Shown piece by piece: positions 22,091-46,016 of a DNA stretch of 51,363 nucleotides. Under the pieces are notes generated by a model. It made no database searches. It had not been told where the DNA came from and was given only the letters and a program-made list of their open reading frames with translations. The stretch is from assembly GCA_937894565.1 (NCBI GenBank), contig CALBHK010000397.1, forward strand, positions 1 to 51,363, given 5' to 3'. The position numbers were made by a program, and so were the translations under genes. The stretch is from an uncultured Chlamydiae bacterium. GTDB taxonomy: Bacteria; Chlamydiota; Chlamydiia; Chlamydiales; CALBHK01. Every line of letters starts with the position of its first letter. The first letter of the stretch is position 1.

Positions 22091-22230
22091 TTCTCTACCC
22101 AAAGATCAAATTGTTAATATCACAACTATTTCATTTAGAATAAGTTGGTTAACTGTATAGCTGGATGGTTGGGTAGCTGGATGTATGGATTACTGGAAAT
22201 CTTATTGGTTGGATAGATGATTGGTTGAGT

Positions 22231-23082
22231 CTAGATATCTAAGAGTCCTTCTAAAACTGGAACAGCGACACATCGGCAATTGATGTCAGTTCCCGGATGG
22301 CCAGTATCTTTCGGTGGGTTGTCCCAACGAAATTTCTTACCATCATGGGCTTTATGGGTGGGGCGAACTCTTTCATCGCCTGCCGTTTGCCAGATGTATT
22401 CCTCGACACCCAATTCTTGCTGCCTAAGTTTTGTTAAGCTCGCATTCAATTTAGATGTCTGATCTCTCGCGATTAACTTCGCGCGCCGTCTAGTAATTCC
22501 GAATCTTTCTTGGATTGATTGAGTCATTGAGTGAAATCTGCTTCCTTCCTGCAAGCCACTCTCGATGATCTGTGCGACCTGTTCGAGTTCTTGTGCTGGA
22601 AGAGAGCGGATTAATTGAGCATTTTGGCTTCCGAACAGTTTTAACTGGTCTTGAAGCCAAGGCTGGTCGATAAAAATATCAATTCCGAAAACGGAATTGT
22701 TGATTCTGTCGAACTGCCTTTTATTATACCTGGCGACTTGTGCGCCAATTATTTTTGATTCCGCTATGGTTTCTTCAACTTTACCCTTTATAGCGTGTAT
22801 TACAGAATTTATCAATCTTTTTAATGCATCTGAAAAATCATCCCCCCTTGCCGAAGAGGTCGGATAGAGCTGTTCCACTTCTAAAATCAGAGAGGGGAGT
22901 GCAGGAATAATGATTTCTTTAATCAGGGTTTTTAATTCGTTTGTTAAAGAGAAAAGTACTCTCATATATTCTCTTTCCAGAGAAGATGGCGGATGCCATT
23001 TAGGAGGTTTTTTCATCTTTGCTGGTTGAAGCTTCCCCATGCGCCTCTGTTGAATTTTAGCAAGCTGATCAATAGAAACCAT
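22231..23082 (-). CDS. Head morphogenesis protein (Mu F / SPP1 gp7 family)
   Basis: 283 aa. C-terminal hallmark W.TAGDERVRPTH...DG..F.......GHPG.DINCRCV. Lies directly downstream of portal. Confidence 0.75.
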   Translation of the reverse strand: MVSIDQLAKIQQRRMGKLQPAKMKKPPKWHPPSSLEREYMRVLFSLTNELKTLIKEIIIPALPSLILEVEQLYPTSSARGDDFSDALKRLINSVIHAIKGKVEETIAESKIIGAQVARYNKRQFDRINNSVFGIDIFIDQPWLQDQLKLFGSQNAQLIRSLPAQELEQVAQIIESGLQEGSRFHSMTQSIQERFGITRRRAKLIARDQTSKLNASLTKLRQQELGVEEYIWQTAGDERVRPTHKAHDGKKFRWDNPPKDTGHPGTDINCRCVAVPVLEGLLDI

Positions 23083-23084
23083 GG

Positions 23085-24542
23085 TTATACCGGTGAGCGA
23101 TATCTGATTCCTGTAGGCATAAAATCAGGTCCAATGCCTGGAGGAGGTGTTTCCTGTGCTTTTTTCTCTTCTTCTAATTCAGCCACTTCTTCTGGATCAA
23201 AACCGTTTTTACGTCCTTCAAGATCCACTTCAGTATTCATAGACCAACGGTTGCCACCGAAACGAGAAACAGCCACCTCAGCAGGATCAAGAACTCCTCT
23301 GTCGAGATAAATGGCGTCTGTTTCTGCGACGATTTTTCTGACGATGGCTTCTTGTTCTTCGGTGTTCTGCCATAGGGGGACAAATTTGATGGACCAGTTG
23401 TCTGGTTCGTCGCCAGCGAATGGTCCATTTTTTGAGAGCATGATGTAGCGAGTGAGCTTTTCAAGGACTGGTTTAAGCTTGGATTCCTGCTCCTGCTTAA
23501 CCATATCGTAAAAATTTCTGACATCGTTATCTCCAGTGGAGTTCATGCCGGCGGAGCTTCTTCCGAAGAGGAGGGATACTGGAATGCCAGAGACCGCAGA
23601 TAGAGCCAGCATAAAACGATCGAGAAGCTCAGGGATGCCTGAGATATTTGTTGAGGCCTTTTCATATTTCTCCGCCGCATCCAATATCATCGTATTGGTT
23701 GCACCTTTGGTTAAATTAAGAATGTCAAGCCGTTTCATGACTTGATTGTCAGCGCATTGTGAAGAGATTAATTCCGCGAGATTGGGAATAGAAAGAGTGT
23801 AATTGACGAAATCCTGCATGATAAGCCCTGCATTAGCAAAGGCCGTGGAATAATTGCGAAGTTCATCGTAGATTGACTGAATAAGGGGATCACCCCAGCC
23901 ATTATTGAAATTTTGCTGCCTTGGAGGCAGTATAGACCAATCTACACGTAGAATTCTTGAGTGATGTACATAGAATAGAGCTCCTGTACGAGTGTCATTG
24001 ACCGTATAGACATTTGGATAGCCATAATTCGGGCTATTCAGATCCTTTTCGAAAGTGCCGTCTCTGCTGAAAGATTGATAGCGATCAAATACATGAAGCC
24101 ATTTTATATCCCTAATATTTCGCTCGTCGACAGGTTCTTCAAGAGGTAAGCCATCGGCAATTCCCATCACACAAAGAGCGCCTCCATACTGTCTGGCCCA
24201 TCGAAGCAGAGTGATCAAATTGAAGTTAGCTTTGAGGGATTCCATTTTGCGATTAATGTCTTGTCCTGAATCTCCCTCGATTTCCCACCCTTGTCTGACC
24301 ATTTCGGATGGCACAATATCCATGATTCGTCGGGTGATCCCGTCAGATCTATACAATTGATCCAGTTCCGCTTGTTCGAATATTTTCTCCAGGCGAAAGT
24401 GAGCATTGACGTTTTTATCGCGTCCTCGCATGCCTAGCCCAGTCAGGACATTGATCCATCCATCGGCCTTGACAAATCCATCATTATGAGGAACGCGACT
24501 CTGTTCTTCAGCGGATTTTTTCTCAAAATTATACGTAGCCAT
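23085..24542 (-). CDS. Portal protein (DUF1073-like)
   Basis: Start trimmed to the ATG at 24540-24542, preceded by GGGAG (the track start at 24566 is TTG). About 485 aa. First gene of the morphogenesis operon, upstream of the Mu F-like gene. Confidence 0.7.
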   Translation of the reverse strand: MATYNFEKKSAEEQSRVPHNDGFVKADGWINVLTGLGMRGRDKNVNAHFRLEKIFEQAELDQLYRSDGITRRIMDIVPSEMVRQGWEIEGDSGQDINRKMESLKANFNLITLLRWARQYGGALCVMGIADGLPLEEPVDERNIRDIKWLHVFDRYQSFSRDGTFEKDLNSPNYGYPNVYTVNDTRTGALFYVHHSRILRVDWSILPPRQQNFNNGWGDPLIQSIYDELRNYSTAFANAGLIMQDFVNYTLSIPNLAELISSQCADNQVMKRLDILNLTKGATNTMILDAAEKYEKASTNISGIPELLDRFMLALSAVSGIPVSLLFGRSSAGMNSTGDNDVRNFYDMVKQEQESKLKPVLEKLTRYIMLSKNGPFAGDEPDNWSIKFVPLWQNTEEQEAIVRKIVAETDAIYLDRGVLDPAEVAVSRFGGNRWSMNTEVDLEGRKNGFDPEEVAELEEEKKAQETPPPGIGPDFMPTGIRYRSPV

Positions 24543-24804
24543 ATACTCCCAAGAGTTAGAGATCAAAATGATACTTGGGGAAGATGGGTACTTGGTGGCA
24601 ACGGCGAGAAAATCGTCGTCTTTGTGTCGATGAGTGTTTGATTTCAGCGTCCCTCCTGAAAAAGAGGGGAGCTTTTCTAAAAATCACCTTATCATAGTTT
24701 TACAAAAAAATAATAGTGAAGAGTTTGTGAAACAGCTGTTTCGTAATTCAAAAAGGGTAATTGGTCAAACAAAACTTTGCGTGTTCCGCCATGTTTACAT
24801 CTCT

Positions 24805-24850
24805 AAAACCGGCGGAAAAAACATTGTTTTGTGTTTCATCCGCCGGTTTT
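24805..24850. terminator. Hairpin with 12-bp perfect stem flanked by A4/T4 (bidirectional terminator-like)
   Basis: aaaaccggcgga (24805-24816) pairs with tccgccggtttt (24839-24850), leaving a 22-nt loop. Intergenic. Confidence 0.4.
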
Positions 24851-24886
24851 ACTGTTTCCTGATACTTTTTTTATACTCTAGAAGGC

Positions 24887-24972
24887 ATCTACAAATCGAC
24901 AAATGTCATTTTGCGGATCAATTTCATTATCATAAAAATTATCTACAAAATAACATTTGTCGATTTGTGGAT
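24887..24972. repeat. Inverted pair of 32-nt units (28/32 match), member of the ATCCxCAAATCGACA..TTTTGCxGAT repeat family
   Basis: atctacaaatcgacaaatgtcattttgcggat (24887-24918) versus the reverse complement of atctacaaaataacatttgtcgatttgtggat (24941-24972). Related units occur at 35061-35203. Confidence 0.8.
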
Positions 24973-25009
24973 TGATTTTTTCCGAGATCAAGGTTTTGCT
25001 GCATCCATA

Positions 25010-25059
25010 AATTCTCCAAAACCTACCAACTAAATTTAGTGGGTTGATTTTGGAGAATT
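25010..25059. repeat. Nested palindrome upstream of the RHH-czc operon (candidate operator)
   Basis: aattctccaaaa (25010-25021) and ttttggagaatt (25048-25059) form a 12-bp perfect inverted repeat. It encloses the 12-bp palindrome actaaatttagt (25029-25040). The structure lies about 100 nt upstream of the RHH start. Confidence 0.6.
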
Positions 25060-25160
25060 CATTACCATGCCTACATACATGTTTATATGGTTGTATATAA
25101 ACATTATTTCAAATATGTATAGGATAACCAAAGAATTCCAAGCCGAGGAGGAGGTTGCCT

Positions 25161-25391
25161 ATGAGAGAACAAGTGGTAAGACTAAGTTTTGACATATCTG
25201 TACATGAACATGCGTTGCTAAAGTCTGCTTGTGCTGAGGCTATGATACCCATGAAAGATTTTTTGCATGATTTGGTATTGAGAGGAATACAGGAACTTAA
25301 GGAAAAGAAATCGCGCGAAAAATCAAAAGAGTCAAAAGCGGGCAAGCTCGAAACGAAGACACTTGTTGAATGTGTAAAAGATGACGCTTGA
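25161..25391 (+). CDS. Ribbon-helix-helix (CopG/Arc-like) small DNA-binding protein
   Basis: ATG at 25161 is 6 nt after GGAGGAGGAGG. The N-terminus VVRLSFDISVHEHALLKSACAEAMIPMKDFLHDLVL fits a beta-strand plus two helices RHH pattern. Lys/Glu-rich tail. Its end overlaps the czcC reading frame. Confidence 0.55.
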   Translation: MREQVVRLSFDISVHEHALLKSACAEAMIPMKDFLHDLVLRGIQELKEKKSREKSKESKAGKLETKTLVECVKDDA

Positions 25392-25437
25392 AGTCGATAA
25401 ATTTTACACAAAGCATAGCTATAGAGGATTTTCATTC

Positions 25438-26694
25438 ATGGGTGTAAAAAATTGGAAAAGATTATGTTATTTCGTTTGTGTTTCCTTCTTCCTATATTTT
25501 CCTTGTGAGATTTTTTGCGAAACAACTCTTTCTTTTGACGAAGCAGTATCCAAAACTTTATCCCTTTCTCCCAAGCTTCGCATCGCCAATAGTGAAATAA
25601 ATGAAAAGGCTGGGGCTCAAACTCAAAGTCGACTCTATCCAAATCCAGTAGCGGGTTACAGTGTTGAAAATGTCTTTGGGAATAAGAATTGGCAAGGTTG
25701 GGAAGCTACAGAATCGCGATATGAAATTGCTCAACTAGTAGAATTGGGTGGGAAAAGGGGATTCCGATATCAAACAGCAAGATTTCAATTCTATGCCGCA
25801 CAGGCGGGATTTGAAGCCAAGCAACTTTTCCTTCTCAATAGACTTTTAAAATTATTCACTTTAGTTGTTGCCTCCCAAGAGAATCTCGCGCTAGCTGTAG
25901 ACCAAACGAAAGTTGCGGAAGAAGTCTATAAGACAGTAACCGCAAAAGTCGAGGCGGGTAAAGTTTCTCTAATCCAACAAAATAAAGCAGAAATTGCTCT
26001 TTCAACAGCTCAGATCAACTTAGAGAAAGCTAAAGCGGACTTTTCTAAAAATAAAGAAAGGCTTTCGATTTTATGGGGATATTCCTGTCCTGATTTTGAT
26101 AGAGTCAGTTTTCCTTTTTATGAAATTAATTTACCAATTCCCTTCGAAGAATGTCTATCTGATTTAAGAGGAAATCCTGAACTTTTGCGATCTCAAATGG
26201 GGCACCTTGCAGCTCATCAAAATTTAAATTTAGAAAAATCTTTAGCTATTCCAGATGTGACAGTAATACTTGGATACAAAACACTTCAAGATACAGGAAA
26301 TAAAGGGCTAATCCTTGGAGCTTCTATTCCTATCCCACTTTTTAATCAGAATCAAGGAAATGTACAGAGAGCAAGGGCTCAAACGCTTAAAGCTCATGAT
26401 CAGTATATTGAACTTGAGCTTGCTTTAGAAAATAAACTCTCTATCGCGCATAAAGAGTTAGTGAGAGCCTACAATGAAGCAGAGCGGATAAGATCTACAG
26501 TGCTTAAAGCGGCTTTCCAATCTTTTGAACTAGCTCAAGAAGGTTATAAGGAAGGAAAATTTGAATACTTAGACATGCTCGATTCTCAAAAAACCCTTTT
26601 TGAAGTTAGAGAAAGATACATTCAAGCCGTGCTAAATTATCATAAAAGCATAGCAGATATAGAATATTTAAATACACAGGAAGATGGGCTATGA
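25438..26694 (+). CDS. czcC: Outer-membrane efflux protein, TolC/CzcC family
   Basis: Start set at the ATG at 25438 (AGAGGA upstream), which yields a signal-peptide-like N-terminus MGVKNWKRLCYFVCVSFFLYF. The track start 25381 is an alternative. TolC-type repeats and the first position in the czcCBA order support the call. Confidence 0.75.
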   Translation: MGVKNWKRLCYFVCVSFFLYFPCEIFCETTLSFDEAVSKTLSLSPKLRIANSEINEKAGAQTQSRLYPNPVAGYSVENVFGNKNWQGWEATESRYEIAQLVELGGKRGFRYQTARFQFYAAQAGFEAKQLFLLNRLLKLFTLVVASQENLALAVDQTKVAEEVYKTVTAKVEAGKVSLIQQNKAEIALSTAQINLEKAKADFSKNKERLSILWGYSCPDFDRVSFPFYEINLPIPFEECLSDLRGNPELLRSQMGHLAAHQNLNLEKSLAIPDVTVILGYKTLQDTGNKGLILGASIPIPLFNQNQGNVQRARAQTLKAHDQYIELELALENKLSIAHKELVRAYNEAERIRSTVLKAAFQSFELAQEGYKEGKFEYLDMLDSQKTLFEVRERYIQAVLNYHKSIADIEYLNTQEDGL

Positions 26695-27911
26695 AAATGA
26701 AAATATTTTATTCGATTACAGGGATAGCTCTTTTAATGAGTAGTATAGTGGCTTGGCAGTTTTGGTCATCATCACCACTCAAAAAAGAGATTGCTTCGTT
26801 AGAAATCGCCGAAGCAAATCCTCATGGTCATACTGACGAGCACGGCCATAGCGAAGAAAATATTATTCCACTTTCATCGGATCAAATTAAAGATCTGGAT
26901 ATTCAAACAAAAATAGCAGGTCCTGGAGAATTGTCTGTGACCATTTCCACTAGAGGAAAAATTATATTGCATCCCGATAGGCTAGCTCACATTTTGCCTA
27001 AAATCTCTGGAGTAGCTAAAGAAGCTCGAAAAAACATTGGAGATCGAGTTAAAGAAGGTGAAGTCTTAGCTATTTTGGAAAGTCGTGAAATGGCAGATAT
27101 CAAAGCGAATTATTTAGCAGCTAAAGAGAAAGAAAGCCTTGCCCTTTCTCTTTTAGACCGTGAAAAACGTTTACATGAGAAGAAAGTTTCTGCTGAACAG
27201 GATTATTTAAATGCAAAATCAGCTTATGCAGAAGCTAAAATTAATGTTCAATTATCCGACCAAAAACTCCATGCCTTTGGGATTGAGGATGAAGAAATCA
27301 AAGAGCTTTCTAATGAACATAACCCTGATTTAAGACTTTACGACATCCGATCTCCTATGGATGGAATTGTGATCGCTCGTCACATTAATAAGGGGGAATT
27401 TATTGAAAATACGACGACGATTTACGAGATTGCTGATCTTAGCATCATCTGGATAGAGATCGGGATATATCCAAAGGATCTTGTGAGGGTAAAAGAGGGA
27501 CAAATGGTGGATATTTCTCTTCCTGTAGATGGAAAGATCGCACAGGCAAAAATAATCTATCTTAGTCCGATCATTCAAGATGAAACTATAACGGCTAAAG
27601 CTGTAGCCGAATTGACAAATCCGAGTGGAAACTGGCGCCCTGGTTCCTTTGTTAAGGTAAATATTGCAACTGAAAATGTTTTTGTTCCCCTTGTCATATC
27701 TAAAGAGGCGATTCAAGAGATCGAAGGCAAAGATTTTGTTTTTGTAAAAGTACCTGAAGGTTTTGAAAAAAGACAAACCCAAGTAGGTGTTAGCGACGAT
27801 AAAAATGTTGAAATTCTTTCAGGCTTAAGTGCAGGAGAAGAATACGCCTCTTCAAAAACATTTTTATTGAAAGCTGATTTAAGCAAAAAAGAAGCGGAGC
27901 ATGAACACTGA
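26691..27911 (+). CDS. czcB: RND efflux periplasmic adaptor (membrane fusion protein), CzcB-like
   Basis: 406 aa with an ATGA overlap to czcC. N-terminal TM segment, His-rich stretch NPHGHTDEHGHSEE, HlyD-type barrel-sandwich motifs. Confidence 0.8.
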   Translation: MKMKIFYSITGIALLMSSIVAWQFWSSSPLKKEIASLEIAEANPHGHTDEHGHSEENIIPLSSDQIKDLDIQTKIAGPGELSVTISTRGKIILHPDRLAHILPKISGVAKEARKNIGDRVKEGEVLAILESREMADIKANYLAAKEKESLALSLLDREKRLHEKKVSAEQDYLNAKSAYAEAKINVQLSDQKLHAFGIEDEEIKELSNEHNPDLRLYDIRSPMDGIVIARHINKGEFIENTTTIYEIADLSIIWIEIGIYPKDLVRVKEGQMVDISLPVDGKIAQAKIIYLSPIIQDETITAKAVAELTNPSGNWRPGSFVKVNIATENVFVPLVISKEAIQEIEGKDFVFVKVPEGFEKRQTQVGVSDDKNVEILSGLSAGEEYASSKTFLLKADLSKKEAEHEH

Positions 27912-35942: not shown

Positions 35943-37497
35943 CTCGACTTTGTACAAATCTAATCGTTTTTCCAGGCTAAGCCGCTGCCAGATATTCAAT
36001 TAATGATCCTATCCACGGGACTCTTGGGTGATGTGCATCCTCTTTTCTTGGTTCATTCACTTCTGACTCATAATTATTTTCACGGAAGGACTCTGGAATA
36101 AGCTTCCTGAAAATTAAATTATCCTTCCACAGCACCTTGCGGACAGCTGTTAACAAATCTGAAAATGTGGCCTCCTTTTTCTCGTACCAAGCTGTCTGTG
36201 CAACGGCGATCGGACGCTCCTCGTTTAAGCGATTTGCAATCAGGCAAACTATTGTGTAGAGACTTAACAAAATTGGAGTGCTTCGAGCGATTGCTTTGTC
36301 TGACCATTGCCGCTGTGTTTCTACCCCCAAATGCTCACGCACTTCCTCAAACGTTACCTCATGATTCCACCTTTGGGCATACAGCTCTACAATCCTTTCA
36401 GGTGAAAGAGTCACATCTGTCGACATCAGAGGAACTGGATCTAATTCACCATCCGGATCAACCACCAATACCCATCTAATAGGAACGGGAGGAAAGCCAT
36501 CAACTCCCCACAGACTGGTCCCCGAAACGTATTTGATGACTTTTTTCTTGCCATATGCCTGAATATCCGCTTCTTTCCATCCGAGATCTGCCATAGAAAG
36601 CATATGTTTGAAGCCAAATAATCTAACTCCCTTCACCCTTTTTCTACCTCTTTTACCAGAGTCTTCAGGCGGGAAATCATAGAGACGTGCATTCATCTTT
36701 AGCCTCGTGACCAGAGAAATCTTATGCTTTAAACAGACCCAAGCAAGTTTTCCAGATGCAAATCCACCATCTCCAACGAGAATGAGAGGGATATTATTAG
36801 CCCACGTTAAAATTTGGAGGATCATTTGTACAGTCCACTGAAGAGTAGTTTTATGACGTTTTTTTGTGAGTTTATCGCTTTTCTCTGATGGTTCCAATAC
36901 TGTCATAAATGGCAGCGCAAAATGACGCGATGAAAATGGAAATCGCCAGGATACCGCCATAGAGAGCCACTTCAGCCCAGAACTCTTAACCAGGGTGTTC
37001 TTGGAAGAGCGAACAGCATCGCGGTAGTATCCTTTGGCCTTAATTTTTGATCCTTTACGTCGTTCCAGGGTCTCATCGACAAAAATTACAAGCGGTAGGG
37101 CATTGCCAATGAGCTCTAAGAGCATTTTAAAGAGTATCTTCGAGCCCATCAATGGCGACCAGTTTACTCGGTTCAGCACGTGGTGATACTTTGCAAAACT
37201 GCTGTTATCACTCAAGCCTACAACTCTAAGGATTGCACAAACGGTACGTTTGCCACGGCACAGAAGGGCTCCTATCAGCATCGTCCTGGCATTTTTCCAA
37301 ACGGGACAGGAAAAAAGTACCGCAAAAGGGGCAAGAATTGTTAAAATTGTAGGCGATAGGGATGTCATAATTTCGTCGCTGATTGTGTTTTTAGACGAAC
37401 AGCAGTTTGCGACGAACGTTACATTCCTATCAATTTTTAATTTTTTTCGGTTCGATTGAACCATTAGTCGGAGTAGTCAAAATTGTACAAAGCCGAG
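35943..37497 (-). mobile_element. IS element (1555 bp, IS4/IS701-like) inserted in glgC
   Basis: Terminal inverted repeats are ctcgactttgtacaa (35943-35957) and ttgtacaaagccgag (37483-37497), matching at 14/15. A 5-bp target duplication tgctt lies at 35938-35942 and 37498-37502. There is a single transposase ORF. Confidence 0.85.
35977..37464 (-). CDS. DDE transposase (IS4/IS701-like)
   Basis: 495 aa. Candidate catalytic residues lie in VIFVDET, LILVGDGGF and the Y-x2-R-x3-E signature YAQRWNHEVTFEE. The true start may be the internal MTSLSP. Confidence 0.8.
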   Translation of the reverse strand: MVQSNRKKLKIDRNVTFVANCCSSKNTISDEIMTSLSPTILTILAPFAVLFSCPVWKNARTMLIGALLCRGKRTVCAILRVVGLSDNSSFAKYHHVLNRVNWSPLMGSKILFKMLLELIGNALPLVIFVDETLERRKGSKIKAKGYYRDAVRSSKNTLVKSSGLKWLSMAVSWRFPFSSRHFALPFMTVLEPSEKSDKLTKKRHKTTLQWTVQMILQILTWANNIPLILVGDGGFASGKLAWVCLKHKISLVTRLKMNARLYDFPPEDSGKRGRKRVKGVRLFGFKHMLSMADLGWKEADIQAYGKKKVIKYVSGTSLWGVDGFPPVPIRWVLVVDPDGELDPVPLMSTDVTLSPERIVELYAQRWNHEVTFEEVREHLGVETQRQWSDKAIARSTPILLSLYTIVCLIANRLNEERPIAVAQTAWYEKKEATFSDLLTAVRKVLWKDNLIFRKLIPESFRENNYESEVNEPRKEDAHHPRVPWIGSLIEYLAAA

Positions 37498-37502
37498 TGC
37501 TT
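37498..37502. repeat. Target-site duplication (right copy, TGCTT)
   Basis: See the left copy at 35938-35942. Confidence 0.75.
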
Positions 37503-38651
37503 AACAATCGACCGCAATCCAATAATGCTATTGCTAACCTCTGCGGCTTGAACCAAAGATCCATCACAGATAATAGCATTCGTGATCGCTGAGTTAATGA
37601 TCTTGGGAGCTGATAAATAATGTTGTCTGAAAAAAATATGTTTTTTTTCTTCGCAACAATTGAATTCAGGATTAGACGACGTCAGTGCAATATTGGCTTT
37701 GAAAAATGATTCAATAGTGCCGATGTCTTCCCAATAACCGTTATGAGGATAAGCAAAAACATTTCCTTGGCCGACTTTAGTTGGAATCAGATGTTTACCA
37801 AAATCTTCTCGAGGATCACATTGCAGCAAATCTAATAATGCTTGTCGCTTGAAGACATAAATTCCCATCGAACCAAGAAATTGTCGTTTGCCAATCTCTC
37901 CTCCAACCATTTTCTCAAGAGTATTTGAGGAACAACGCAATTGATTTAAAAGTTCTTGTTCTTGTGGTTTTTCATAAAATTCAGTGACGGAGTAATCTTC
38001 GTTTAACTTCATGATCCCCATGCGTTTTGCATCTTCCTCATTTACAGGCAGTGCTGCAATTACTAGATCAGCAGAAGTCTCTTTAGCAAAATCAATGATG
38101 TGTTGGAAATTCATGTTATAAATCTGATCGCCCGACAAAATAAGAAAATATTCTGCAGAAGTTTCAATAAAATAATGCAGATTTTGTCGAATAGCACATG
38201 CTGTTCCCTGAAACCATGATTTATGCGAGTGTTTTTGTTCTGCCGATATCAGCTCAATAGAAGAAGAAGAAAATGCACCTGGATGGTAAGTATTAAATAT
38301 GTGTTGGTTAAGTGAAGATGAAAGGTATTGAGAAATAACAAAAATTTTAGAACAACCCGAATGAATGGCATTAGAAATAGGAATATCAATCAAACGATAT
38401 TTACCACCAAAACAAACAGCTGGCTTGCACCGTGTATTTGTAAGTGGTTCAAGGCGTGTACCATTTCCCCCTGCAAGAATAATTGTGGTGACACAATTCA
38501 TGGCCACTGATATCTTAGCTTTTTTAGGCGAAAGGTAGCATTCGGCCATTTGTGTCATTGGGGACCTTGGTTTCTTTGAGTAAATAGTAATTTTTATTTA
38601 ACACATGGCAATTTTTAAACGAAGCGAATTCCCTCTATTTGCTTCACTGTA

Positions 38652-38700
38652 GGCAAATTAAGAGATGACAAATTGTGCAACAGCTGCTGCATAATTTGCC
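38652..38700. terminator. Hairpin downstream of the integrase gene
   Basis: ggcaaatta (38652-38660) pairs with taatttgcc (38692-38700). It encloses the near-palindrome tgcaacagctgctgca (38676-38691). Lies between the integrase stop (38736) and the glgC start (38558). Confidence 0.35.
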
Positions 38701-38735
38701 TTCCGCGTTGTAATCCTCGCACATTCAGAAAATTT

Positions 38736-39713
38736 CTAAGATATCAAATTGACTTTTTTACTCGCATTGTCGGCTCGTGATGATTTATCATAAGCGTAAA
38801 CCATTTCTGCTGTGGAATGTCCGGTTACACGCATAATATCGCTGTCTTGAAATCCTTGCTGCTTAAGGTAAGTAACAGCAGAAGCTCTCAACACATGGGG
38901 GGAAACTTTAAAAGGAATCCCGGCAGCTTTCCCAGCTTTTCCAAAGGTGATAGCTACCTGATTGATCATGACAGGTTTTCCAGACCTAGTTATAAATACG
39001 TGCCCAGCTCTTTCTTCAATGTAATCTTTAAGCCGCTTCATAATGCTCTCTGAATAGGTAATCACCGTTTCTTTCTTGAGTCTTCTCATTTTTGACTGAA
39101 CAAATGTAATCTCACAGCAGTCCCAATCAATTTGGTTGGTTTGCAAAGATAATACCTCATTCACCCTCTTACCACCTTGTAAGATCACTTTTCCAATCAA
39201 ACAATCGCGTGGATTGAGCTTTTCTAATTCCTTGAAGAATAAAATCCACTGCGCTTGTGTCATTGCATGAGTTTTAACCTTTTCATATACGCTAAAGAAT
39301 GTTTTTGCGTTTCCCTCTTTATTTGGAATGGCCTTTTTTATAACGCCTTCAAGGCGACGACTCAAAAATCCAGTAAACGAGATATAACAGGCTGCACGAG
39401 CCTGTCTGGTGGTTTCTGCCCAATCCTGAAACAGTTTAATGCTGTCGATAATACCTTCATGATTGATCAAAGCAAATTGTTGCAAGCTGATGAGGGGATT
39501 AAGCCATCCGAACTCGACTAATTTTTTCATACCCGATCTATAGCTAAGCTGTGTTTTTGGACTTAAAGTCAGTAGCCAATAAGAAATCGCTTCCTCTACA
39601 GAAATTTCGTCTAGTTTCTTCCAAACCGAATTAGCTTTGAAAGACGCTGCTTGTTCATAGGTTTCCAAATTGGAGGTGACTTGAGGCTCCAAGATTGCTG
39701 GCAGTAAAGTCAT
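38736..39713 (-). CDS. Tyrosine recombinase / phage-type integrase
   Basis: 325 aa. Catalytic-domain motifs are GGKRVNEVLSL (Arg box), HVLRASAVTYL (H-x-x-R) and GHSTAEMVYAYD (His and the nucleophile Tyr). Confidence 0.85.
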   Translation of the reverse strand: MTLLPAILEPQVTSNLETYEQAASFKANSVWKKLDEISVEEAISYWLLTLSPKTQLSYRSGMKKLVEFGWLNPLISLQQFALINHEGIIDSIKLFQDWAETTRQARAACYISFTGFLSRRLEGVIKKAIPNKEGNAKTFFSVYEKVKTHAMTQAQWILFFKELEKLNPRDCLIGKVILQGGKRVNEVLSLQTNQIDWDCCEITFVQSKMRRLKKETVITYSESIMKRLKDYIEERAGHVFITRSGKPVMINQVAITFGKAGKAAGIPFKVSPHVLRASAVTYLKQQGFQDSDIMRVTGHSTAEMVYAYDKSSRADNASKKVNLIS

Positions 39714-39895
39714 AGCTGTTGCTTCCCCTCACAAAAAACCTCGAATAATTTTTTATGTTCTTTCCTGCATATTATTTCTTTGATGGGGGAGTTAGACTCG
39801 GTCTTTATGATGGCCAGATCAAAAGTTTTATTAGTTTTTTTTGTTTCAAATATTTTTTTGTGGGATTTTGAGTCTTTGAGTTCATTTTTCGGCAT
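39710..39895 (-). CDS. Small Lys-rich protein translationally coupled to the integrase (possible excision/directionality factor)
   Basis: Track ORF trimmed to the ATG at 39893-39895, preceded by GAGGTG. Its stop overlaps the integrase ATG (ATGA). 61 aa and very basic. Function is inferred from position only. Confidence 0.4.
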   Translation of the reverse strand: MPKNELKDSKSHKKIFETKKTNKTFDLAIIKTESNSPIKEIICRKEHKKLFEVFCEGKQQL

Positions 39896-40125
39896 CGACA
39901 CCTCAACTTGTTTATAAGCGGCTTTATAAACAAGAAAAGATAGCTCAAAAAATCTTTCGTGGCAACTTGAAGTTTTGATGGTTACAAACATTTTACAGCA
40001 AGTCGCTTTAGCTATTCCATATTTAATGCGTTTTTCAATCTTTAATGCTAAATGCCTATTGACCTCTAATCGCCTTATCTTTTATACCTCTTATTTCTAC
40101 ATCGTTAAGGAGGCTAAGTAATGAC

Positions 40126-40383
40126 ATGAGCGAAGAAGTTCAAGAGCTAGTACAGCAAACCACTAAAGATATCAGTAGCCAAGATGATCAATTAGTAGTC
40201 AGTCGCCGCAACAAGAAAAAAATCAAAGCTACTATTTATCTGACCGAGGAAGCAGAGCAAGCATTTACTGAGCTTTATATCCATCGCTTGCGCAAAGATA
40301 GAAAGATCGACCGCTCGGTCATTGCTTGCGATGCCATTCAGATGCTTTACGAAAAAGAATGTCTGGAAGCTGCTTCGAATTAG
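40126..40383 (+). CDS. Small DNA-binding-like protein (RHH/ParG-like)
   Basis: 85 aa with AAGGAGG upstream. KATIYLTEEAEQAFTELYIHRL....IDRSVIACDAIQMLYE fits a strand-helix-helix pattern. Convergent with abiEii, overlapping by 4 nt. Confidence 0.5.
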   Translation: MSEEVQELVQQTTKDISSQDDQLVVSRRNKKKIKATIYLTEEAEQAFTELYIHRLRKDRKIDRSVIACDAIQMLYEKECLEAASN

Positions 40384-41240
40384 AAGAATGCGTTTTCTTT
40401 CAGCCATTGGTTCAGGACTGAAATCACATCCTCTATCGATTCAGGCAGTTTGAGAGCGCCTTTTTTCGCTTTGATTTTTCTACGGTAGGGAGTCCAGTTT
40501 TTCTCAAGCGTTTCTAAAGCATCCATGCCGAATGCAACCGGTAGTTTCTTCAGAAGAGTTTTTCTGTGGTGGAAAACCAGCTGGACGGCTTTCTTTGCAA
40601 GAGAGCTGTCGAGAACATCTAAGCGAACTAGCGAGTACAGGTCATGGAAATCTTTCATCCTGGTGTTGCCTCCTCCTCGGAAAACAACCGTTTCTAATTT
40701 CTCTGCAAAAATGAATTCCTTCGGATAGCAATGCAGAGAAATTCTGCTTTCAAAGAGAGGGCCTTTCGATGTGGCAGTCAAATCCATGGGATATTCAATT
40801 GGCTCCACGCGGTCGCCGAATCCTAAATCCATGCGCATGACCGTCTTGGTGGCGCCGAACAATGCCTGCAGCGTAATTTCAGCTCCTGTGTATGCGAGCT
40901 GCGAATGATCGAGGATCTTGATTTTAGCCACTTCGAAGGCAAAGCTATCATTAGCATTGATATCGCAGATCGCTTGCAACACAGTTCTTAAAGACTCTTC
41001 AGTATTCGATAGCTTTTGAATGAAGAAGTCAAGATCCTGCGTCTCCCTTCCAAGATGGATGTATTTTGCCAGGAGGGATCCTCCTTTCAGAACAAATTTT
41101 TCCCTGTAAATAGAACGCGCTAAACGGGTCAAAAATCTCTCTAAGATCAGATTCCTCCAAAGTTCTGCAAAGGTTGTTTCCCGCTCCTTGGCCAGTGCTT
41201 TGATTTTCTCTTTGATTGATTGTTCGATTGCAGATTTCAT
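40380..41240 (-). CDS. AbiEii/AbiGii-family nucleotidyltransferase toxin (DUF1814), copy 1
   Basis: 286 aa. Motifs FVLKGGSLLAKY, GRETQDLDFF and RMKDFHDLY. ATGA-type overlap with the upstream abiEi. Confidence 0.85.
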   Translation of the reverse strand: MKSAIEQSIKEKIKALAKERETTFAELWRNLILERFLTRLARSIYREKFVLKGGSLLAKYIHLGRETQDLDFFIQKLSNTEESLRTVLQAICDINANDSFAFEVAKIKILDHSQLAYTGAEITLQALFGATKTVMRMDLGFGDRVEPIEYPMDLTATSKGPLFESRISLHCYPKEFIFAEKLETVVFRGGGNTRMKDFHDLYSLVRLDVLDSSLAKKAVQLVFHHRKTLLKKLPVAFGMDALETLEKNWTPYRRKIKAKKGALKLPESIEDVISVLNQWLKENAFF

Positions 41241-41833
41241 AGTGTAAACGCCGAAATGTAAGGAGTTAAGTCGACTCTAAGCTTCTTCGCATATCTTAGA
41301 AGCTTGTCGATATCCGGTTTTCTATCTTTGCTTGTCTTTAAATAAGCTTGCAAAGCCTTTAAAGCGGTTTCCTTGTCCAGATAGCGGAAAGAGTCCACGA
41401 CAGTCCGTTCCCGATCGAAAATTTTGAGCTTCTGGCTGCCGATTTTAATCGTGGTCTGTCCAAAAGAGATGTTCCGCATCCGGACGATGTGAGCATTTTC
41501 CCTGGCAGGGGAGGTGGTGGCATGCGGAATAGCAATCCAAAATTCCCTCATGATTTCATCCGTTAAACCGTAATAGCATAGAGCAGAAATGAGACAGATG
41601 ACCCCATTCGGGATGCTCAAAGTAGTAACCGCGAGATCTTCCCATTCGAATTCGGAGTCAAAATCAAGGTCGGTGATTTTATACATCCCTTTGCTGACCC
41701 GCTCGATCTGCCCCTTCGTGCAAAAATAGGCAAGCATCCGGGGAGGGATTCCTGCTTTCCTTCCTTCTGCGGAAGAAAAAACTGCTTTTTTGGACAGCGC
41801 TTTGAGCGCGGCTGAGTACTTGGATCTTATCAT
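41237..41833 (-). CDS. AbiEi-family antitoxin/transcriptional regulator, copy 1
   Basis: 198 aa. N-terminal winged-helix-like region (IPPRMLAYFCTKGQIERVSKGMYK) and a conserved core IPNGVICLISALCYYGLTDEIMREFWIAIPH. Paired with AbiEii. Confidence 0.8.
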   Translation of the reverse strand: MIRSKYSAALKALSKKAVFSSAEGRKAGIPPRMLAYFCTKGQIERVSKGMYKITDLDFDSEFEWEDLAVTTLSIPNGVICLISALCYYGLTDEIMREFWIAIPHATTSPARENAHIVRMRNISFGQTTIKIGSQKLKIFDRERTVVDSFRYLDKETALKALQAYLKTSKDRKPDIDKLLRYAKKLRVDLTPYISAFTL

Positions 41834-41839
41834 ACCCGT

Positions 41840-41888
41840 AATGTAACAGAAAAACCCATTAACGGCAACTGGGTTTTTCTGTTACATT
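41840..41888. repeat. 19-bp perfect inverted repeat (AbiEi operator and/or terL terminator candidate)
   Basis: aatgtaacagaaaaaccca (41840-41858) and tgggtttttctgttacatt (41870-41888), with an 11-nt loop. It ends 6 nt upstream of the abiEi-1 start codon and lies 50 nt downstream of the terL stop. Confidence 0.8.
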
Positions 41889-41937
41889 TTCACTCGTGGA
41901 ATTCATTAATAAATCTTTTTAAAATAAGGATGTTATA

Positions 41938-43287
41938 TCAAAGAGTTGTCAAAGCGGTCAGGTCATATGTCGAATCAGTAAGCATCAAAAAAGCACCGCT
42001 CAGAGCATCAACAATATCATCATGGCTTCCTTCAGGGAAATTTTCCACCTCTCTTAAAAAATCTTCGTTCCAGGACGCCTGCAGGATCTTGATATTTCCA
42101 GCCTCTGCCTGAGAAGAGACAGGGAGAGCTCTCGTTACTTTGTCCTGGGTAGCTTTGAATGTCTTCACGTTATATCCTTGAAGCATTCTAACGAGATAAT
42201 CTGCTTCGCTTATTCCAGCCTGGCCAGGATCCTGCTCGATACCAATCCTTATCGAAACGCCATCTTGACTTGCCGTATTTTTGATGGCATTTTGAACCCC
42301 TAAAGGACTTTGCTGAATTCTTACCATATCGGTGATGTACAAAATATTATTTTTATCCTTTTCAAGACGCAGACCAACAGTATAATCAGGGTCATTGCTT
42401 TCTGTTTTTTTTGTTGCTGCTCGATCCCAATAACGCACGGCCTTTAATCCGCCCTTTGGAATGGCTTTGACAACTTCAAAAAAGCTCCTCTGGAAAAACA
42501 TACCTGCTGTCGGCCTGACGTTCCAGTTTCCCATTAGCAGTTGCTCTCTTTCGAAACGAGGAAGCGCTTTAAGGTTGGCTAAGTATCCAGGATCCTTATC
42601 GAGTAGGATTTTATTATCATGCACGGTTGAAGCTACAAAAGAAACGCTCTTGGGCAGGCAACTCGGGTCTTTTCCTATCAACTCTTCGCGACTAGACCCC
42701 CAAATTGTCTGATCATTTTGAATGAAGAACCAGCGAGTTTTTCCGCTTCGTGAGGGGATTGGGTATCCTGATTTTTCATCAATCCACCAGGAAATAAATT
42801 GTCGAACCCAGGAATCTGTATCTGGGTTGGTAGTGGCTCGAATATATGGCTTCACTCCGCAAGTTGATCGATTTCTTGAGAGCATATAAACAAATTGCTG
42901 CCAGGAAAAGTGAGTAAGCTCATCAAACCCGACAAGGGGAATCTGTGAGCCTTGCCAGTCAAAGCGTGTTTTATCATGCTCTAGGTGAGCGAATTTGACT
43001 TTGCCATTTCCTTGGAAATCCCATTCAAGAGTGGACTCCTTAGGAGTTCCGTTCGCATGAACAAAAAGCTCGCAGCTTGTATCCCATAAGCCGCCTGGAT
43101 TGCGGACTTGAGTGCTGTTTCTTCTGAATATTACAGCAGAGAATCCGGGAACATTTCTATGTCGCAGGCATTCCATTAAAAGAGCCCAAGTTTTGCCGCC
43201 TCCAGCAGCTCCACCATAAATGACAATATCCGCCGAAGCATTCAAGAACTGGTATTGAGGACCTTTCTGAGGTATGATTTTAGGCAT
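41938..43287 (-). CDS. terL: Terminase large subunit
   Basis: 449 aa. Walker A is IYGGAAGGGKTWAL. The C-terminal nuclease region ends with ..FPEGSHDDIVDALSGAF, typical of the terminase_6 type. Confidence 0.85.
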   Translation of the reverse strand: MPKIIPQKGPQYQFLNASADIVIYGGAAGGGKTWALLMECLRHRNVPGFSAVIFRRNSTQVRNPGGLWDTSCELFVHANGTPKESTLEWDFQGNGKVKFAHLEHDKTRFDWQGSQIPLVGFDELTHFSWQQFVYMLSRNRSTCGVKPYIRATTNPDTDSWVRQFISWWIDEKSGYPIPSRSGKTRWFFIQNDQTIWGSSREELIGKDPSCLPKSVSFVASTVHDNKILLDKDPGYLANLKALPRFEREQLLMGNWNVRPTAGMFFQRSFFEVVKAIPKGGLKAVRYWDRAATKKTESNDPDYTVGLRLEKDKNNILYITDMVRIQQSPLGVQNAIKNTASQDGVSIRIGIEQDPGQAGISEADYLVRMLQGYNVKTFKATQDKVTRALPVSSQAEAGNIKILQASWNEDFLREVENFPEGSHDDIVDALSGAFLMLTDSTYDLTALTTL

Positions 43288-43768
43288 GGGGGTCCTCCAC
43301 CTTTTCTTCTATGCAGTCGCCTCTGCCGTTATCGGGAATGTAAATCTGGACAGGGTCTTCTCCCTTGACGATTGTTTCCGTGACAATAGTTTCTCTTTGG
43401 CCAAGCCATATTTTTCCAAGCCAGATAGCCATGGTTGCGCTGTGCTCAGCTTGCTGAAATTGATAACGGCGAAGGGAGAGTTTATGACGCCCATTGCACC
43501 TTTTTCTTAGCTCCGCAAAACCCATACCAAAAGCCTCCCTCAACCTTCGATCCAAGGTATCGACGCTGACTCGAAAAGAGCCTGCAATTTCTTCGGCTGT
43601 CGCTTGCATTTCCGTCCAATAGAGCACTTGATCCAGGTTGATTTCTTTTGCAGGCACAATTCCCTTCCATTCAGCAGGAGGGGATTGCGGATCCACTGGT
43701 GGTTTGACTGTTTTCTTAGGCCGACCATTTGGCTGGCCTGTAGGCTTTCTAGGCATAATTTTCACCAT
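43280..43768 (-). CDS. terS: Terminase small subunit (putative)
   Basis: 162 aa overlapping the terL start by 8 nt. Basic N-terminus, HTH-like ATAEEIAGSFRVSVDTLDRRL, then ..MAIWLGKIWLGQRE. The alternative ATG at 43756 (MPRKPTG) is equally plausible. Confidence 0.6.
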   Translation of the reverse strand: MVKIMPRKPTGQPNGRPKKTVKPPVDPQSPPAEWKGIVPAKEINLDQVLYWTEMQATAEEIAGSFRVSVDTLDRRLREAFGMGFAELRKRCNGRHKLSLRRYQFQQAEHSATMAIWLGKIWLGQRETIVTETIVKGEDPVQIYIPDNGRGDCIEEKVEDPHA

Positions 43769-45074
43769 TCAACTTAATGTTGCATGGCTCGTTTCTATGC
43801 AGCTTGTACTTCCTATAACGATCGACAATAACATCGCAATATTTTGGATCGAGCTCGCAACCAAAACATCGGCGGTCCAACTGCTCTGCTGCGATTAGTG
43901 TTGTCCCGGAGCCCAGGAAGAAATCGAATACAAGATCATCCTTCTTTGAGCTGTTATTGATAAGATAGCCAATTAATGGGATAGGTTTCATGGTAGGATG
44001 CTCGGCATTTCTCTGCGGCCTATCGAATTTAAGAAGGGTGGTTTGCTTGCGGTTATTATACCAACGATGCTTCTCTCCCTCTTTCCATCCGTAAAGCACA
44101 GGATCATGGTCGCTGTATTCCTTGCCCCCGAAAAGGACAGGTTCATGCTGCCATTGATAATCTTGCCGTCCAAGAACAAGGGAGTTCTTTAACCAGATAA
44201 GACACTGTGTCATTTTTAAGTTTGACTCCCTGAAAAACCGGCGGAATTTTTCCCCTTCAGAATCGGCATGAAATACATAGATTCCAGCTCCTTCTTTCAT
44301 GAAGACGAAAGCATTCACATAGAAATCTCGCAAAAGGGATTCAAAGTCCTCATTTGAGAGATCGTCATTTTTAATGGTAAGCTTCTCTTTTGTGCCGCCC
44401 TTATACGCAACATTATAAGGGGGATCTGTGATTACCAGATCAATCAGTTCTGACTCAAGTACCTTTTCGATATCACCATGAATTGTGGCGGATCCACAGA
44501 TTAGCCGATGCCTTCCCAAATCATAAATATCGCCAGGCTTAGACTTTGGTTCCTCCGGCAATTCTTCTTCATAGCCGTCATCAATCGCTTCAATCTTTTC
44601 GGGGTCTTTGAACTGAAGTTCAGTTTCGGTAAATCCCCAATTGAACAAATCTTTTACCTCCCATTCATTGGCTAAACGCTCCCAATCCCATTCCCCAGAA
44701 TTCTTATTGCTGCGAATAAGATATTCTTCAGCTTCCCTGGAAGTAAGCTGCCGGTTTGGAACCCGCACTTCGATTTTTTCTTTTCCACGACCTAGTGCTT
44801 TCATAGCTTTAACCCTCATGTGGCCAGCCAAGATAGTATTATCTAGATTGACGACGATGGTCTCCACATAGTTAAAGCTTTTTAATGATTGCTTTAGCTT
44901 TTCCATCTGATCTTTTGTGATCTTGCGAGGATTTTTCTCGTGATCTTTGAAGTCTTTGATCTGCCTGGTTTCCGTATGCCATACCAGCTCATCTAAAACG
45001 ATTTCAGATTCTTGCGCGGGGGTCTCAATTTCGACCGGCTGGACCTCCGAATCCTTAGTTTTGCTCTTTGCCAT
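43749..45074 (-). CDS. ParB-like nuclease domain fused to an N6/N4 DNA methyltransferase
   Basis: 441 aa. ParB box NTILAGHMRVKAMKALG, motif IV VITDPPYNVAY, and motif I FDFFLGSGTT after it (beta-class order). Confidence 0.85.
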   Translation of the reverse strand: MAKSKTKDSEVQPVEIETPAQESEIVLDELVWHTETRQIKDFKDHEKNPRKITKDQMEKLKQSLKSFNYVETIVVNLDNTILAGHMRVKAMKALGRGKEKIEVRVPNRQLTSREAEEYLIRSNKNSGEWDWERLANEWEVKDLFNWGFTETELQFKDPEKIEAIDDGYEEELPEEPKSKPGDIYDLGRHRLICGSATIHGDIEKVLESELIDLVITDPPYNVAYKGGTKEKLTIKNDDLSNEDFESLLRDFYVNAFVFMKEGAGIYVFHADSEGEKFRRFFRESNLKMTQCLIWLKNSLVLGRQDYQWQHEPVLFGGKEYSDHDPVLYGWKEGEKHRWYNNRKQTTLLKFDRPQRNAEHPTMKPIPLIGYLINNSSKKDDLVFDFFLGSGTTLIAAEQLDRRCFGCELDPKYCDVIVDRYRKYKLHRNEPCNIKLNGENYA

Positions 45075-45182
45075 CTTTCATCTCTCTGATTTAATTTTTT
45101 TTCTTGTACAGAACTTGTAGACCAATTTTTTCCTAATTACCAAATTGGTAAAAAACGATAGAAAATCGGTATTTAAGATTTA

Positions 45183-45222
45183 AGAGAGTAATTGAGGAAG
45201 GGGAGTAGAGAGAGTAATTGAG
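45183..45222. repeat. Two 14-bp direct repeats (agagagtaattgag) with a 26-bp period
   Basis: Copies at 45183-45196 and 45209-45222, between DUF1064 and the MTase gene. The 15-bp palindrome ttaccaaattggtaa lies nearby at 45137-45151. Confidence 0.75.
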
Positions 45223-46007: not shown

Positions 46008-46016
46008 AAGCAGTCC

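Follow-up and report, generated by a model that had tools for sequence, protein, structure and literature searches.

The DNA analysed here, referred to as the window, is contig CALBHK010000397.1 of an uncultured Chlamydiae bacterium (51,363 nucleotides; assembly GCA_937894565.1). It carries a set of tailed-phage genes in which the large terminase gene, terL, ends at 41938 and the portal gene starts at 24542 on the same strand, with a 17.4-kb block between them. This layout had been described in an earlier sequence-only reading, and was confirmed by the open reading frames (ORFs) and their Pfam matches. We consider it probable, at about 0.8, that the block is the plasmid-maintenance and cargo region of a known family of phage/plasmid hybrid megaplasmids of environmental chlamydiae, in which separation of the two genes is the norm. 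The replicon is most likely a plasmid and not a chromosome. This corrects a tempting mis-annotation: an apparent prophage broken by an island would be the normal architecture of chlamydial phage/plasmid hybrids.

The interval between the two genes, both on the minus strand, is 17,395 bp long (24543-41937). The terL ORF (41938-43287) encodes a full-length large terminase, with Pfam matches to Terminase_6N (4.8e-30) and Terminase_6C (6.9e-17); its alignments cover 96-99% of the length of known phage terL proteins, with a best identity of 53%. The portal gene (23085-24542, with the ORF open from 24566) matches PF06381 (4.1e-90), and its ATG at 24542 is the annotated start of a 94%-identical portal on the plasmid of Criblamydia sequanensis. 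The sequence-only reading had listed metal efflux genes, a P1B ATPase, a further ATPase, a glgC gene interrupted by an insertion sequence (IS), a recombinase and an AbiE pair in the block. All of these were recovered, whereas the two genes that it had called ribbon-helix-helix (RHH) and the one called CBM-like matched no family.

Relatives were collected by a terL scan using one genome per species, which gave 20 loci, nearly all in metagenome-assembled genomes (MAGs) of Chlamydiota (Parachlamydiaceae, Rhabdochlamydiaceae and others) and with terL 87-98% identical to that of the window. Gene order was determined by tBLASTN of the window proteins against all fetched loci. The same order was held in every close relative, at more than 20 loci with terL 87-98% identical: DUF1064, methyltransferase, terS-like ORF, terL, an optional AbiEi-AbiEii pair, an RHH-like ORF on the opposite strand, a small ORF, the recombinase, variable DNA, the ATPase gene on the opposite strand, variable DNA, and portal. 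The distance between terL and portal ranged from 3.5 to more than 25 kb. The shorter gaps were 3.5 kb (L006/L076), 3.9 kb (L025/L078), 4.6, 5.2, 5.5, 6.0, 7.1, 7.8, 8.3 and 9.1 kb, and at nine loci portal lay more than 10 kb from terL. Thus sister loci also carry cargo between terL and portal. One explanation offered in the sequence-only reading was that an island had inserted into this particular prophage; the insertion is instead ancestral, being present at all of the more than 20 close loci and on the complete plasmid of a cultured isolate.

The more distant relatives (terL 67-77% identical; L027-L040) gave the opposite result. Twelve such loci include both genes, and four of the 12 are IMG/VR contigs 41-44 kb long; in every one of them terL and portal are 11-84 bp apart, and no recombinase is found there. 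That terL and portal were once neighbours is borne out by these 12 loci, and the proposal that recombinase-bearing foreign DNA entered the intervening spacer holds for the lineage's ancestor. In one distant contig, of 41.9 kb, the gene order is that of a closed circle; its fibre genes are followed by homologs of hypothetical 'early' genes of the C. sequanensis plasmid, with no ParA or helicase.

Within the close relatives the recombinase module is always present, and presence or absence varies only for sub-blocks, not for the interval as a whole. Alignment with compact relatives shows two stretches that only the window has: 35048-38736, which separates the recombinase from the ATPase and contains the IS-interrupted glgC and a 117-aa ORF, and 24564-33463, which lies between ATPase and portal and contains a spacer ORF, the czc-P1B genes and a 106-aa ORF. 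Other relatives have different cargo at these points, among it ankyrin-repeat proteins, P-type ATPases, dehydrogenases, a YhcG nuclease, TetR with an FAD monooxygenase, Fic/DOC, IS21 and a regulator of the AraC/GyrI type. The recombinase and the ATPase are a shared backbone, and AbiE, glgC::IS701 and czcCBA-P1B are lineage-variable additions.

The closest plasmid is that of C. sequanensis CRIB-18 (pCrib; LK031773 / NZ_LK031773.1), a circle of 89,524 bp whose terL is 94% identical to that of the window. BLASTN aligned the two in four collinear blocks of 83-96% nucleotide identity. These are the virion module (window 4409-24981, plasmid 66844-87406; 20.6 kb, 95.7%), the czc-P1B module (25073-33049, plasmid 27005-34985; 85%), the DNA from recombinase to DUF1064 (38737-45709, plasmid 19983-26937; 87%), and a lipoprotein ORF with the second AbiE pair and second czc operon (45803-51363, plasmid 87663-89524 and 1-3836; 81-85%). 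On the plasmid, a distance of 25.7 kb separates terL (23177-24526) from portal (85515-86972). The DNA between them contains AbiE, the same small ORFs, the recombinase, glucoamylase, acetate kinase, PRPP synthase, glgP, phosphoketolase, a czc operon with a P-type ATPase, and a second AbiE pair. Its fibre genes are followed by genes for ParA, a small partner protein and a 781-aa protein with DnaG zinc-ribbon, Toprim and DnaB-C domains; the same three genes follow the fibres in three IMG/VR relatives (L042, L044, L050), and the ParA is 75% identical to that of the Protochlamydia megaplasmid pPNK. Because plasmid genes occupy both the terL-portal spacer and the region after the fibres, the lineage is taken to be a hybrid of a phage of about 42 kb and a chlamydial plasmid.

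The window shares with the C. sequanensis plasmid the virion genes, the series terL-AbiE-small ORFs-Pgp7/8 recombinase, cargo between terL and portal, metal-efflux genes among that cargo, two AbiE pairs, and carbohydrate-metabolism genes beside the recombinase. It differs in having the czc-containing modules at reciprocal positions, and in having glgC::IS701 where pCrib has the glucoamylase-to-phosphoketolase block. Like the compact relatives, it also keeps the ATPase between recombinase and portal; no homolog was detected in the pCrib interval. Replicons of this kind are on record as plasmids. pCrib was solved as a circle, and 7% of its proteins are 'phagic' (PMC4208316); pRm2 of 'Rubidus massiliensis', which resembles it, is an 80.9-kb replicon, circular by PCR, with 2-3 copies and 20 phage proteins (PMC4791399). 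Köstlbacher et al. described a 'phage group' of chlamydial plasmid genes (PMC7846284). The literature that we searched held no paper on the terL/portal split, and none that named these replicons phage-plasmids.

The gene that had been read as the island's integrase is a Pgp7/Pgp8-type tyrosine recombinase (38736-39713, minus strand). Its product is 47-49% identical over 98-99% of its length to Pgp7/Pgp8 of 112 Chlamydia 7.5-kb plasmids (E 1e-87 to 1e-91), and 91% identical to the recombinase of the C. sequanensis plasmid. These alignments identify it as the ortholog of the chlamydial plasmid recombinases Pgp7 and Pgp8, and it does not lie at an attachment (att) end. The pgp7/8 genes are a core gene family of chlamydial plasmids (PMC7846284). 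The recombinase overlaps by 4 nucleotides a translationally coupled small ORF (39710-39991, minus strand) and, together with a small RHH-like ORF on the plus strand (o40126; 40126-40383), forms a module (38736-40383) that in all close relatives lies directly downstream of terL, apart from the optional AbiE. By analogy, its role is most likely in plasmid maintenance or multimer resolution and not in chromosomal integration; Pgp8 is reportedly needed for plasmid maintenance. The Chlamydia 7.5-kb plasmids have both Pgp7 and Pgp8, whereas the window has a single copy, set between the phage genes for packaging and for the portal in a plasmid larger than 50 kb. Unlike in those plasmids, there is no adjoining 22-bp iteron array or tandem repeat.

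Selection on the phage genes was estimated by pairwise Nei-Gojobori comparison of the window with up to eight relatives. The ratio of nonsynonymous to synonymous divergence (dN/dS) was 0.016-0.10 for terL, the terS-like ORF, the methyltransferase, DUF1064, portal, MuF, DUF2213, the major capsid protein, sheath and baseplate, with dS from 0.06 to saturation. For the packaging module it was 0.02-0.07 and for the recombinase about 0.04-0.05, and the ATPase was equally constrained. Since all the relatives compared share the split, this constraint lasted long after the split arose. The suggestion that the packaging operon had been crippled is therefore contradicted by values that accumulated after the two genes were parted. 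The virion and packaging set is also complete, with every ORF open (terS-like, terL, portal, MuF, scaffold-like, major capsid, neck, sheath, tube, tape measure, baseplate and fibres). Selective constraint on both terL and portal can thus be kept while their near-universal adjacency is stably broken.

Divergence from the C. sequanensis plasmid is uneven. In the virion genes dS is 0.01-0.13, and in the terminase module, recombinase and czc genes it is 0.4-1.2. Because the virion values are far below those of the terminase module, the modules have different histories, which would imply that the 20-kb virion module was exchanged recently between plasmids of different chlamydial hosts. On the C. 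sequanensis plasmid the portal spacer is joined to AbiE2-czc(a), and DUF1064 to regulator-czc(b)-P1B; in the window these junctions are reversed, the portal spacer being joined to czc(b)-P1B and DUF1064 to AbiE2-czc(a). The swapped czc modules and the unequal dS values would together point to module exchange. Of the large rearrangement around chromosomal DNA that had been proposed for the window, the swap of czc modules relative to the C. sequanensis plasmid stands; the surrounding DNA is most likely plasmid and not chromosomal.

Several observations weigh against a plasmid hybrid with an inherited split, or limit how far it can be taken. The window is a linear excerpt and has no replication or partition genes, so that its plasmid status rests on collinearity. 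The element is also carried by a 1.92-Mb contig (L011) and by a 2.07-Mb chromosome-level MAG (L016), and chromosomal copies therefore exist. Homologs of the ATPase occur in many settings outside phages, so it counts as backbone for this lineage only. The recombinase has an inferred role and target site, and a search of its surroundings gave no iterons or tandem repeats. Two joints, at 24982-25072 and 45710-45802, are seen in the window alone, a 46-mer across the first had no match in JGI metagenomes, and the four exchanged junctions have no core sequence in common. Finally, no report of infectious particles was found in the literature searched.

A history that would account for the arrangement begins with a phage ancestor in which terL and portal were adjacent. 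A recombinase module, made up of the RHH-like ORF, the small ORF, the Pgp7/8-type recombinase and the ATPase with its winged helix-turn-helix (wHTH) domain, would have become fixed in the spacer between them, and ParA and the primase-helicase downstream of the tail fibres. The terL-portal interval would now be a maintenance and accessory locus into which DNA can insert at three points or more: next to terL, ahead of the recombinase module; between recombinase and ATPase; and between ATPase and portal. Cargo would be swapped in and out there by recombination between related plasmids. In the window, AbiE occupies the first point, glgC, later struck by an IS701-family element, the second, and czcCBA-P1B the third. 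On a circle, an island in a phage and a phage in a plasmid are the same cointegrate. The hallmark Pgp7/8 recombinase stands at the break in a lineage found across several chlamydial families, and the locus collects metal-resistance, glycogen/carbohydrate, effector-like (ankyrin, Fic) and defence genes.

Two familiar systems are comparable in part. Like phage P1, with its Cre/lox, ParAB and phd-doc, the chlamydial replicon combines a tailed-virion set with partition and replication genes, a tyrosine recombinase, toxin-antitoxin (TA) addiction and cargo. It differs from P1 in having no sequence relationship to it, in carrying recombinase and cargo between terL and portal, in being about twice the size of its phage ancestor, and in having an obligate intracellular chlamydia as host; its virions and lytic cycle are putative. 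In P2/P4-type hotspots, or 'morons', variable cargo including defence-type genes lies at fixed spots between conserved phage genes. The AbiE pair and the PDC-S27-like ATPase resemble these in lying at a fixed position between conserved phage genes. Unlike such hotspots, the window locus breaks the near-universal terL-portal adjacency and carries plasmid core functions, and metabolic and metal-resistance operons of up to 25 kb are found at the chlamydial locus.

The purpose of the conserved phage genes is a separate matter from the structure. One view, which concerns function and is compatible with the phage/plasmid hybrid structure, is that the phage part is a domesticated, non-propagating or gene transfer agent (GTA)-like particle system whose genes serve gene transfer or another host function. 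We regard this as possible, though not likely. Complete relatives of the ancestral type are 41-44 kb long, against 80.9-89.5 kb for pRm2 and pCrib (PMC4791399), and by this size argument a capsid from a phage of about 42 kb would leave no particle able to carry a whole plasmid of 80-90 kb. The strong purifying selection over saturated dS would also fit, as would the failure to identify a repressor or lysogeny switch, and the C. sequanensis plasmid is typed as non-mobilizable, yet its 20-kb virion module is 95.7% identical to that in the window replicon. Contrary to this view, the C. sequanensis plasmid has kept phage early genes, which are homologous to those found in the relative with the canonical order. 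Some contigs with the split layout are only about 45 kb long (L097) and might be packaged whole, and the ancestral capsid capacity is assumed from phage genome size.

A broader proposal, which we hold only tentatively and think unlikely as a whole, joins two claims. Environmental chlamydiae, obligate intracellular bacteria from which only microviruses are known, would keep a widespread and selectively conserved tailed-phage machinery on non-conjugative megaplasmids, cargo having doubled the replicon past its capsid capacity; and the particles would be the vehicle of horizontal plasmid transfer, or a GTA-like transducer, between chlamydial families inside amoebae. The replicons raise the question of how non-conjugative plasmids move between obligate intracellular bacteria and, if tailed particles are made, what a capsid from a 42-kb phage would package out of an 80-90-kb replicon. 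C. sequanensis, and R. massiliensis for pRm2, are cultured systems in which tailed particles could be sought.

We also considered whether the recombinase and the clusters of inverted repeats form an integron-like or att-type system that captures cassettes at the terL-portal locus. Six copies of TGTCGATTTGNRGAT, a count reached by 0 of 100 shuffles, are confined to two clusters of three, at 24887-24972 and at 35061-35203; the second has 30-nt inverted-repeat arms and follows directly on the stop codon of the ATPase gene. The motif is half of a palindrome of about 25 bp (ATCYNCAAA-TGTCGA-TTTGNRGAT). At 24978-24981 and 35036-35057, each adjoining one of the clusters, breakpoints of cargo recur to within a few base pairs, and highly variable cargo lies right beside the recombinase, which would fit a capture system. 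However, related motifs flank the ATPase gene in L006, L008, L016, L076, L081/82, L097 and L101, mostly on the promoter side, as an operator would. A related motif is also present in the portal spacer of the C. sequanensis plasmid. Because the motif tracks the flanks of the ATPase gene in relatives, the clusters are more likely a putative operator set than a recombination site. Moreover, the recombinase-glgC joint and the AbiE insertion both lack the motif, no core sequence is common to the four exchanged junctions, and the cargo consists of multi-gene operons with their own regulators and not of cassettes. A capture system is therefore improbable.

The main view of the sequence-only reading, that the packaging operon of a chromosomal prophage was recently entered and inactivated by a discrete integrative island bringing an integrase and a TA pair of its own, is more improbable still, and the comparison with relatives largely refutes it. 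It would account for the adjacency of terL and portal in more distant relatives, for the tyrosine recombinase and TA pair inside the block, and for a block GC content of 0.35-0.41, lower than the 0.41-0.47 outside it. It does not account for the finding that every close relative has the recombinase, the small ORFs and the ATPase in the terL-portal interval, the split on the cultured isolate's plasmid, the orthology of the recombinase with Pgp7/8, homology breakpoints that cut the block into at least three independent insertions, or the strong purifying selection on packaging and virion genes. Nor are there significant flanking direct repeats. The 10-nt repeat GAATTCATTA, put forward earlier as the only candidate, is indeed present (25055-25064 and 41899-41908), but is compatible with chance (6 of 100 shuffles gave at least two copies) and coincides with no homology breakpoint. 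A repeat search for att sites yielded only this chance-level 10-mer; self-BLAST of the window gave no other repeat that could serve as att and no long internal repeats, no tRNA gene was found in the window, and the block has no tandem repeats or iterons.

Least probable of all is a chimeric contig that misjoins pieces of different replicons or strains at the block edges, for although the source is probably a metagenome, and the two window-only joints, one with its unmatched 46-mer, are the exact reciprocal of joints on the C. sequanensis plasmid, there are no long repeats at these joints that could mislead an assembler (the two czc operons are 21-29% and the two AbiE pairs about 48% identical in amino acid sequence), an independent ENA metagenome contig of 9.9 kb (L068; window 27543-35942 at 96%, 37498-38961 at 91%) reproduces the internal czcA-P1B-ORF-ATPase-glgC-recombinase joints, and the terL-AbiE-recombinase and recombinase-glgC joints recur in several assemblies. 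Because the terL-portal separation is universal in the lineage, it is independent of the two unique joints.

The packaging module (41938-45786, minus strand) comprises, in transcription order, DUF1064 (45244-45585), an N6/N4 DNA methylase (43749-45074), the terS-like ORF (43280-43768) and terL. The terS-like ORF was assigned by position only; searches of Pfam, PHROGs, NCBIfam and PADLOC gave it no significant match. Upstream of DUF1064, conserved DNA of about 200 bp ends in a 28-nt perfect palindrome, AAATAGGGAAACAGCTGTTTCCCTATTT (45749-45776), at the outer end of the module, and homology among relatives ends about 125-200 bp upstream of DUF1064. The palindrome is kept in the C. sequanensis plasmid (~26938-26965), just before homology to other elements ends. 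A perfect hairpin with a 19-bp stem (41840-41888, minus strand) directly follows the terL stop and is probably the terminator of the DUF1064-to-terL operon. A weak sigma-70-like promoter about 150 bp upstream of portal is not above chance. The packaging operon and the portal-to-tail operon would now be separate transcription units. As the second AbiE pair and second czc operon lie to the right of the terminase module, that segment is only about 3.8 kb long with cargo on both sides; the cargo on its other side had been missed earlier.

The myovirus-type virion module (1-24542, minus strand), recognized from Pfam and PHROGs matches, runs from portal down to the fibre genes. It includes a MuF-like minor head protein (22231-23082), DUF2213 (20798-22102), the major head protein (19086-20015), neck proteins, sheath (14905-16791), and then tube, chaperone, tape measure and baseplate, all on the minus strand and in this transcription order. 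The MuF domain and the variable flanks had suggested a Mu-like transposable phage; this was dropped, as such a phage would need a transposase, which is missing, and the flanking DNA consists of plasmid cargo. At the end of the module are three tandem paralogous fibre or fibre-assembly-like genes (1379-4384, minus strand; phrog_863). They contain short proline-rich (CCACCnCC) repeats, relatives differ in the number and variants of these genes, and identity to the C. sequanensis plasmid falls here from 96% to 70-88%. This variation suggests host-range diversification.

The portal-proximal spacer (24543-24981, plus strand) contains an ORF of 113 aa (24634-24975) and the first TGTCGATTTGNRGAT cluster. 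It is the end of the block that is common to the C. sequanensis plasmid, where the recurrent homology breakpoint at 24978-24981 falls; homology to the compact relatives L006 and L008 ends at 24558-24563. Next is the czc-P1B cargo module (25073-33049, plus strand; Pfam and NCBIfam), with a small regulator-like ORF (25161-25385), a czcC-like outer membrane efflux protein (OEP; 25381-26694), a membrane fusion protein (26691-27911), an RND pump (27911-31165) and a P1B heavy-metal ATPase (31162-33039; TIGR01525, 546 bits). Its 85%-identical counterpart on the C. sequanensis plasmid lies across the terminase module, upstream of DUF1064, and compact relatives lack it at this position. Six small ORFs, at 24634-24975, 25161-25385, 33054-33374, 35278-35631, 39710-39991 and 40126-40383, had no significant match in Pfam, PHROGs, NCBIfam or PADLOC.

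The backbone ATPase (33552-35045, plus strand, in the segment 33440-35047) combines an ATPase_2 domain (PF01637) with an ArsR-type wHTH. It matches PADLOC PDC-S27 over its full length (E 4.2e-82; residues 26-495 on 3-472 of 474), and a defence activity is a candidate annotation only. The segment edges at 33440-33469 and 35036-35057 recur in many relatives, and the gene lies between recombinase and portal in L006, L008, L016, L025, L076, L078, L090, L097 and L101. At its start is a conserved perfect 15-nt inverted repeat, AAATCAAGCAGCAAA / TTTGCTGCTTGATTT (window 33521-33565), also found in L006 (8616-8662) and L025 (5900-5947), which looks like a putative autoregulatory operator. Homologs of the ATPase (68-97% identity) are abundant in metagenomes (L068-L147), many in non-phage contexts; some loci adjoin AbiE pairs. 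Because only about 10-12 of 80 such loci have phage or recombinase neighbours, the ATPase is mobile in its own right.

The adjoining cargo segment (35278-38558, minus strand) holds the 117-aa ORF that had been called CBM-like (35278-35631) and glgC, identified by Pfam and split into 35670-35942 and 37498-38558. The interruption is an IS701-family element of 1,555 bp (35943-37497) with a transposase gene at 35977-37464 (NCBIfam NF049999, 307.7 bits against a cut-off of 170), terminal inverted repeats matched at 16 of 20 positions, and a 5-bp target duplication, TGCTT, at 35938-35942 and 37498-37502. Intact glgC with an empty IS site is present at the same place beside the recombinase in L004, L009 and L068, and the empty target in L068 indicates that the insertion is recent. 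The glgC genes lie at 35670-38558 in the window, 13223-14542 in L004, 14551-15828 in L009 and 8132-9457 in L068. On these plasmids the cargo adjoining Pgp7/8-type recombinases repeatedly includes genes for glycogen and carbohydrate metabolism (glgC, glgP, glucoamylase); on the C. sequanensis plasmid such sites beside the recombinase are at 11053-12735 and 18649-19950. The plasmid of Chlamydia controls glycogen accumulation.

Between terL and the recombinase module are AbiEii toxin (40380-41240; PF08843, PADLOC 2e-69) and AbiEi antitoxin (41237-41833; PF13338, PADLOC 1.3e-79) genes, both on the minus strand and overlapping by 4 nucleotides, as in type IV toxin-antitoxin (abortive infection) systems of the AbiE kind. 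The pair is an optional insert found here in about half of the close relatives: it is present in the C. sequanensis plasmid, L007-L011, L018 and L090, and missing from L003-L006, L013-L017, L022, L024-L026, L097 and L101. It is most likely an addiction or exclusion module. Residues 34-74 of the neighbouring o40126 product share 44% identity with the C-terminal end of the protein encoded beside ParA on the C. sequanensis plasmid, a likeness that is compatible with an RHH fold but no proof of it. A single-sequence AlphaFold model of this product (pLDDT 62, low confidence) has two C-terminal helices that are RHH-compatible and not diagnostic.

Outside the terL-portal block is a second cargo region (45803-51363), 82-88% identical in amino acid sequence to the portal-adjoining module of the C. 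sequanensis plasmid. It contains a 67-aa lipoprotein-like ORF with a signal peptide and a lipobox-like FQGC (45804-46007, minus strand), the second AbiEii/AbiEi pair (46017-47470, minus strand) and the second czc operon (from 47758, plus strand). A recent duplication of AbiE and czc as the cause of the layout was rejected on the 48% identity of the AbiE proteins and the approximately 21% identity of the OEPs.

Some further copies are of interest for the distribution of the element. In L016 the portal alignment ends after 336 codons beside an IS transposase homolog (15899-18609), and this copy looks like a decaying one. Element contigs L004, L008 and L010 were binned into MAGs labelled Bacteriovoracaceae and Verrucomicrobia, and are probably mis-binned plasmid contigs. 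Solitary terL homologs of 70-72% identity (L019, L020, L021) occur in a Chlamydiae MAG with no portal within 10 kb, a Parachlamydiaceae MAG and a MAG of Puia, Bacteroidota, the contigs of the last two being short; they may be remnants, or else the ancestral phage group had a wider range of hosts. An archaeal virus, Methanoculleus virus L4768 (L002, 1242-4436), has a terL 54% identical to that of the window and the same order of methylase, small ORF and terL, a striking cross-domain likeness of the packaging module. The lipoprotein-like ORF corresponds to a unit of about 210 bp that is also found in the C. sequanensis plasmid (87663-87890), L081 (3870-4075) and L082 (3328-3533), with different junctions in different plasmids, as an independent module.

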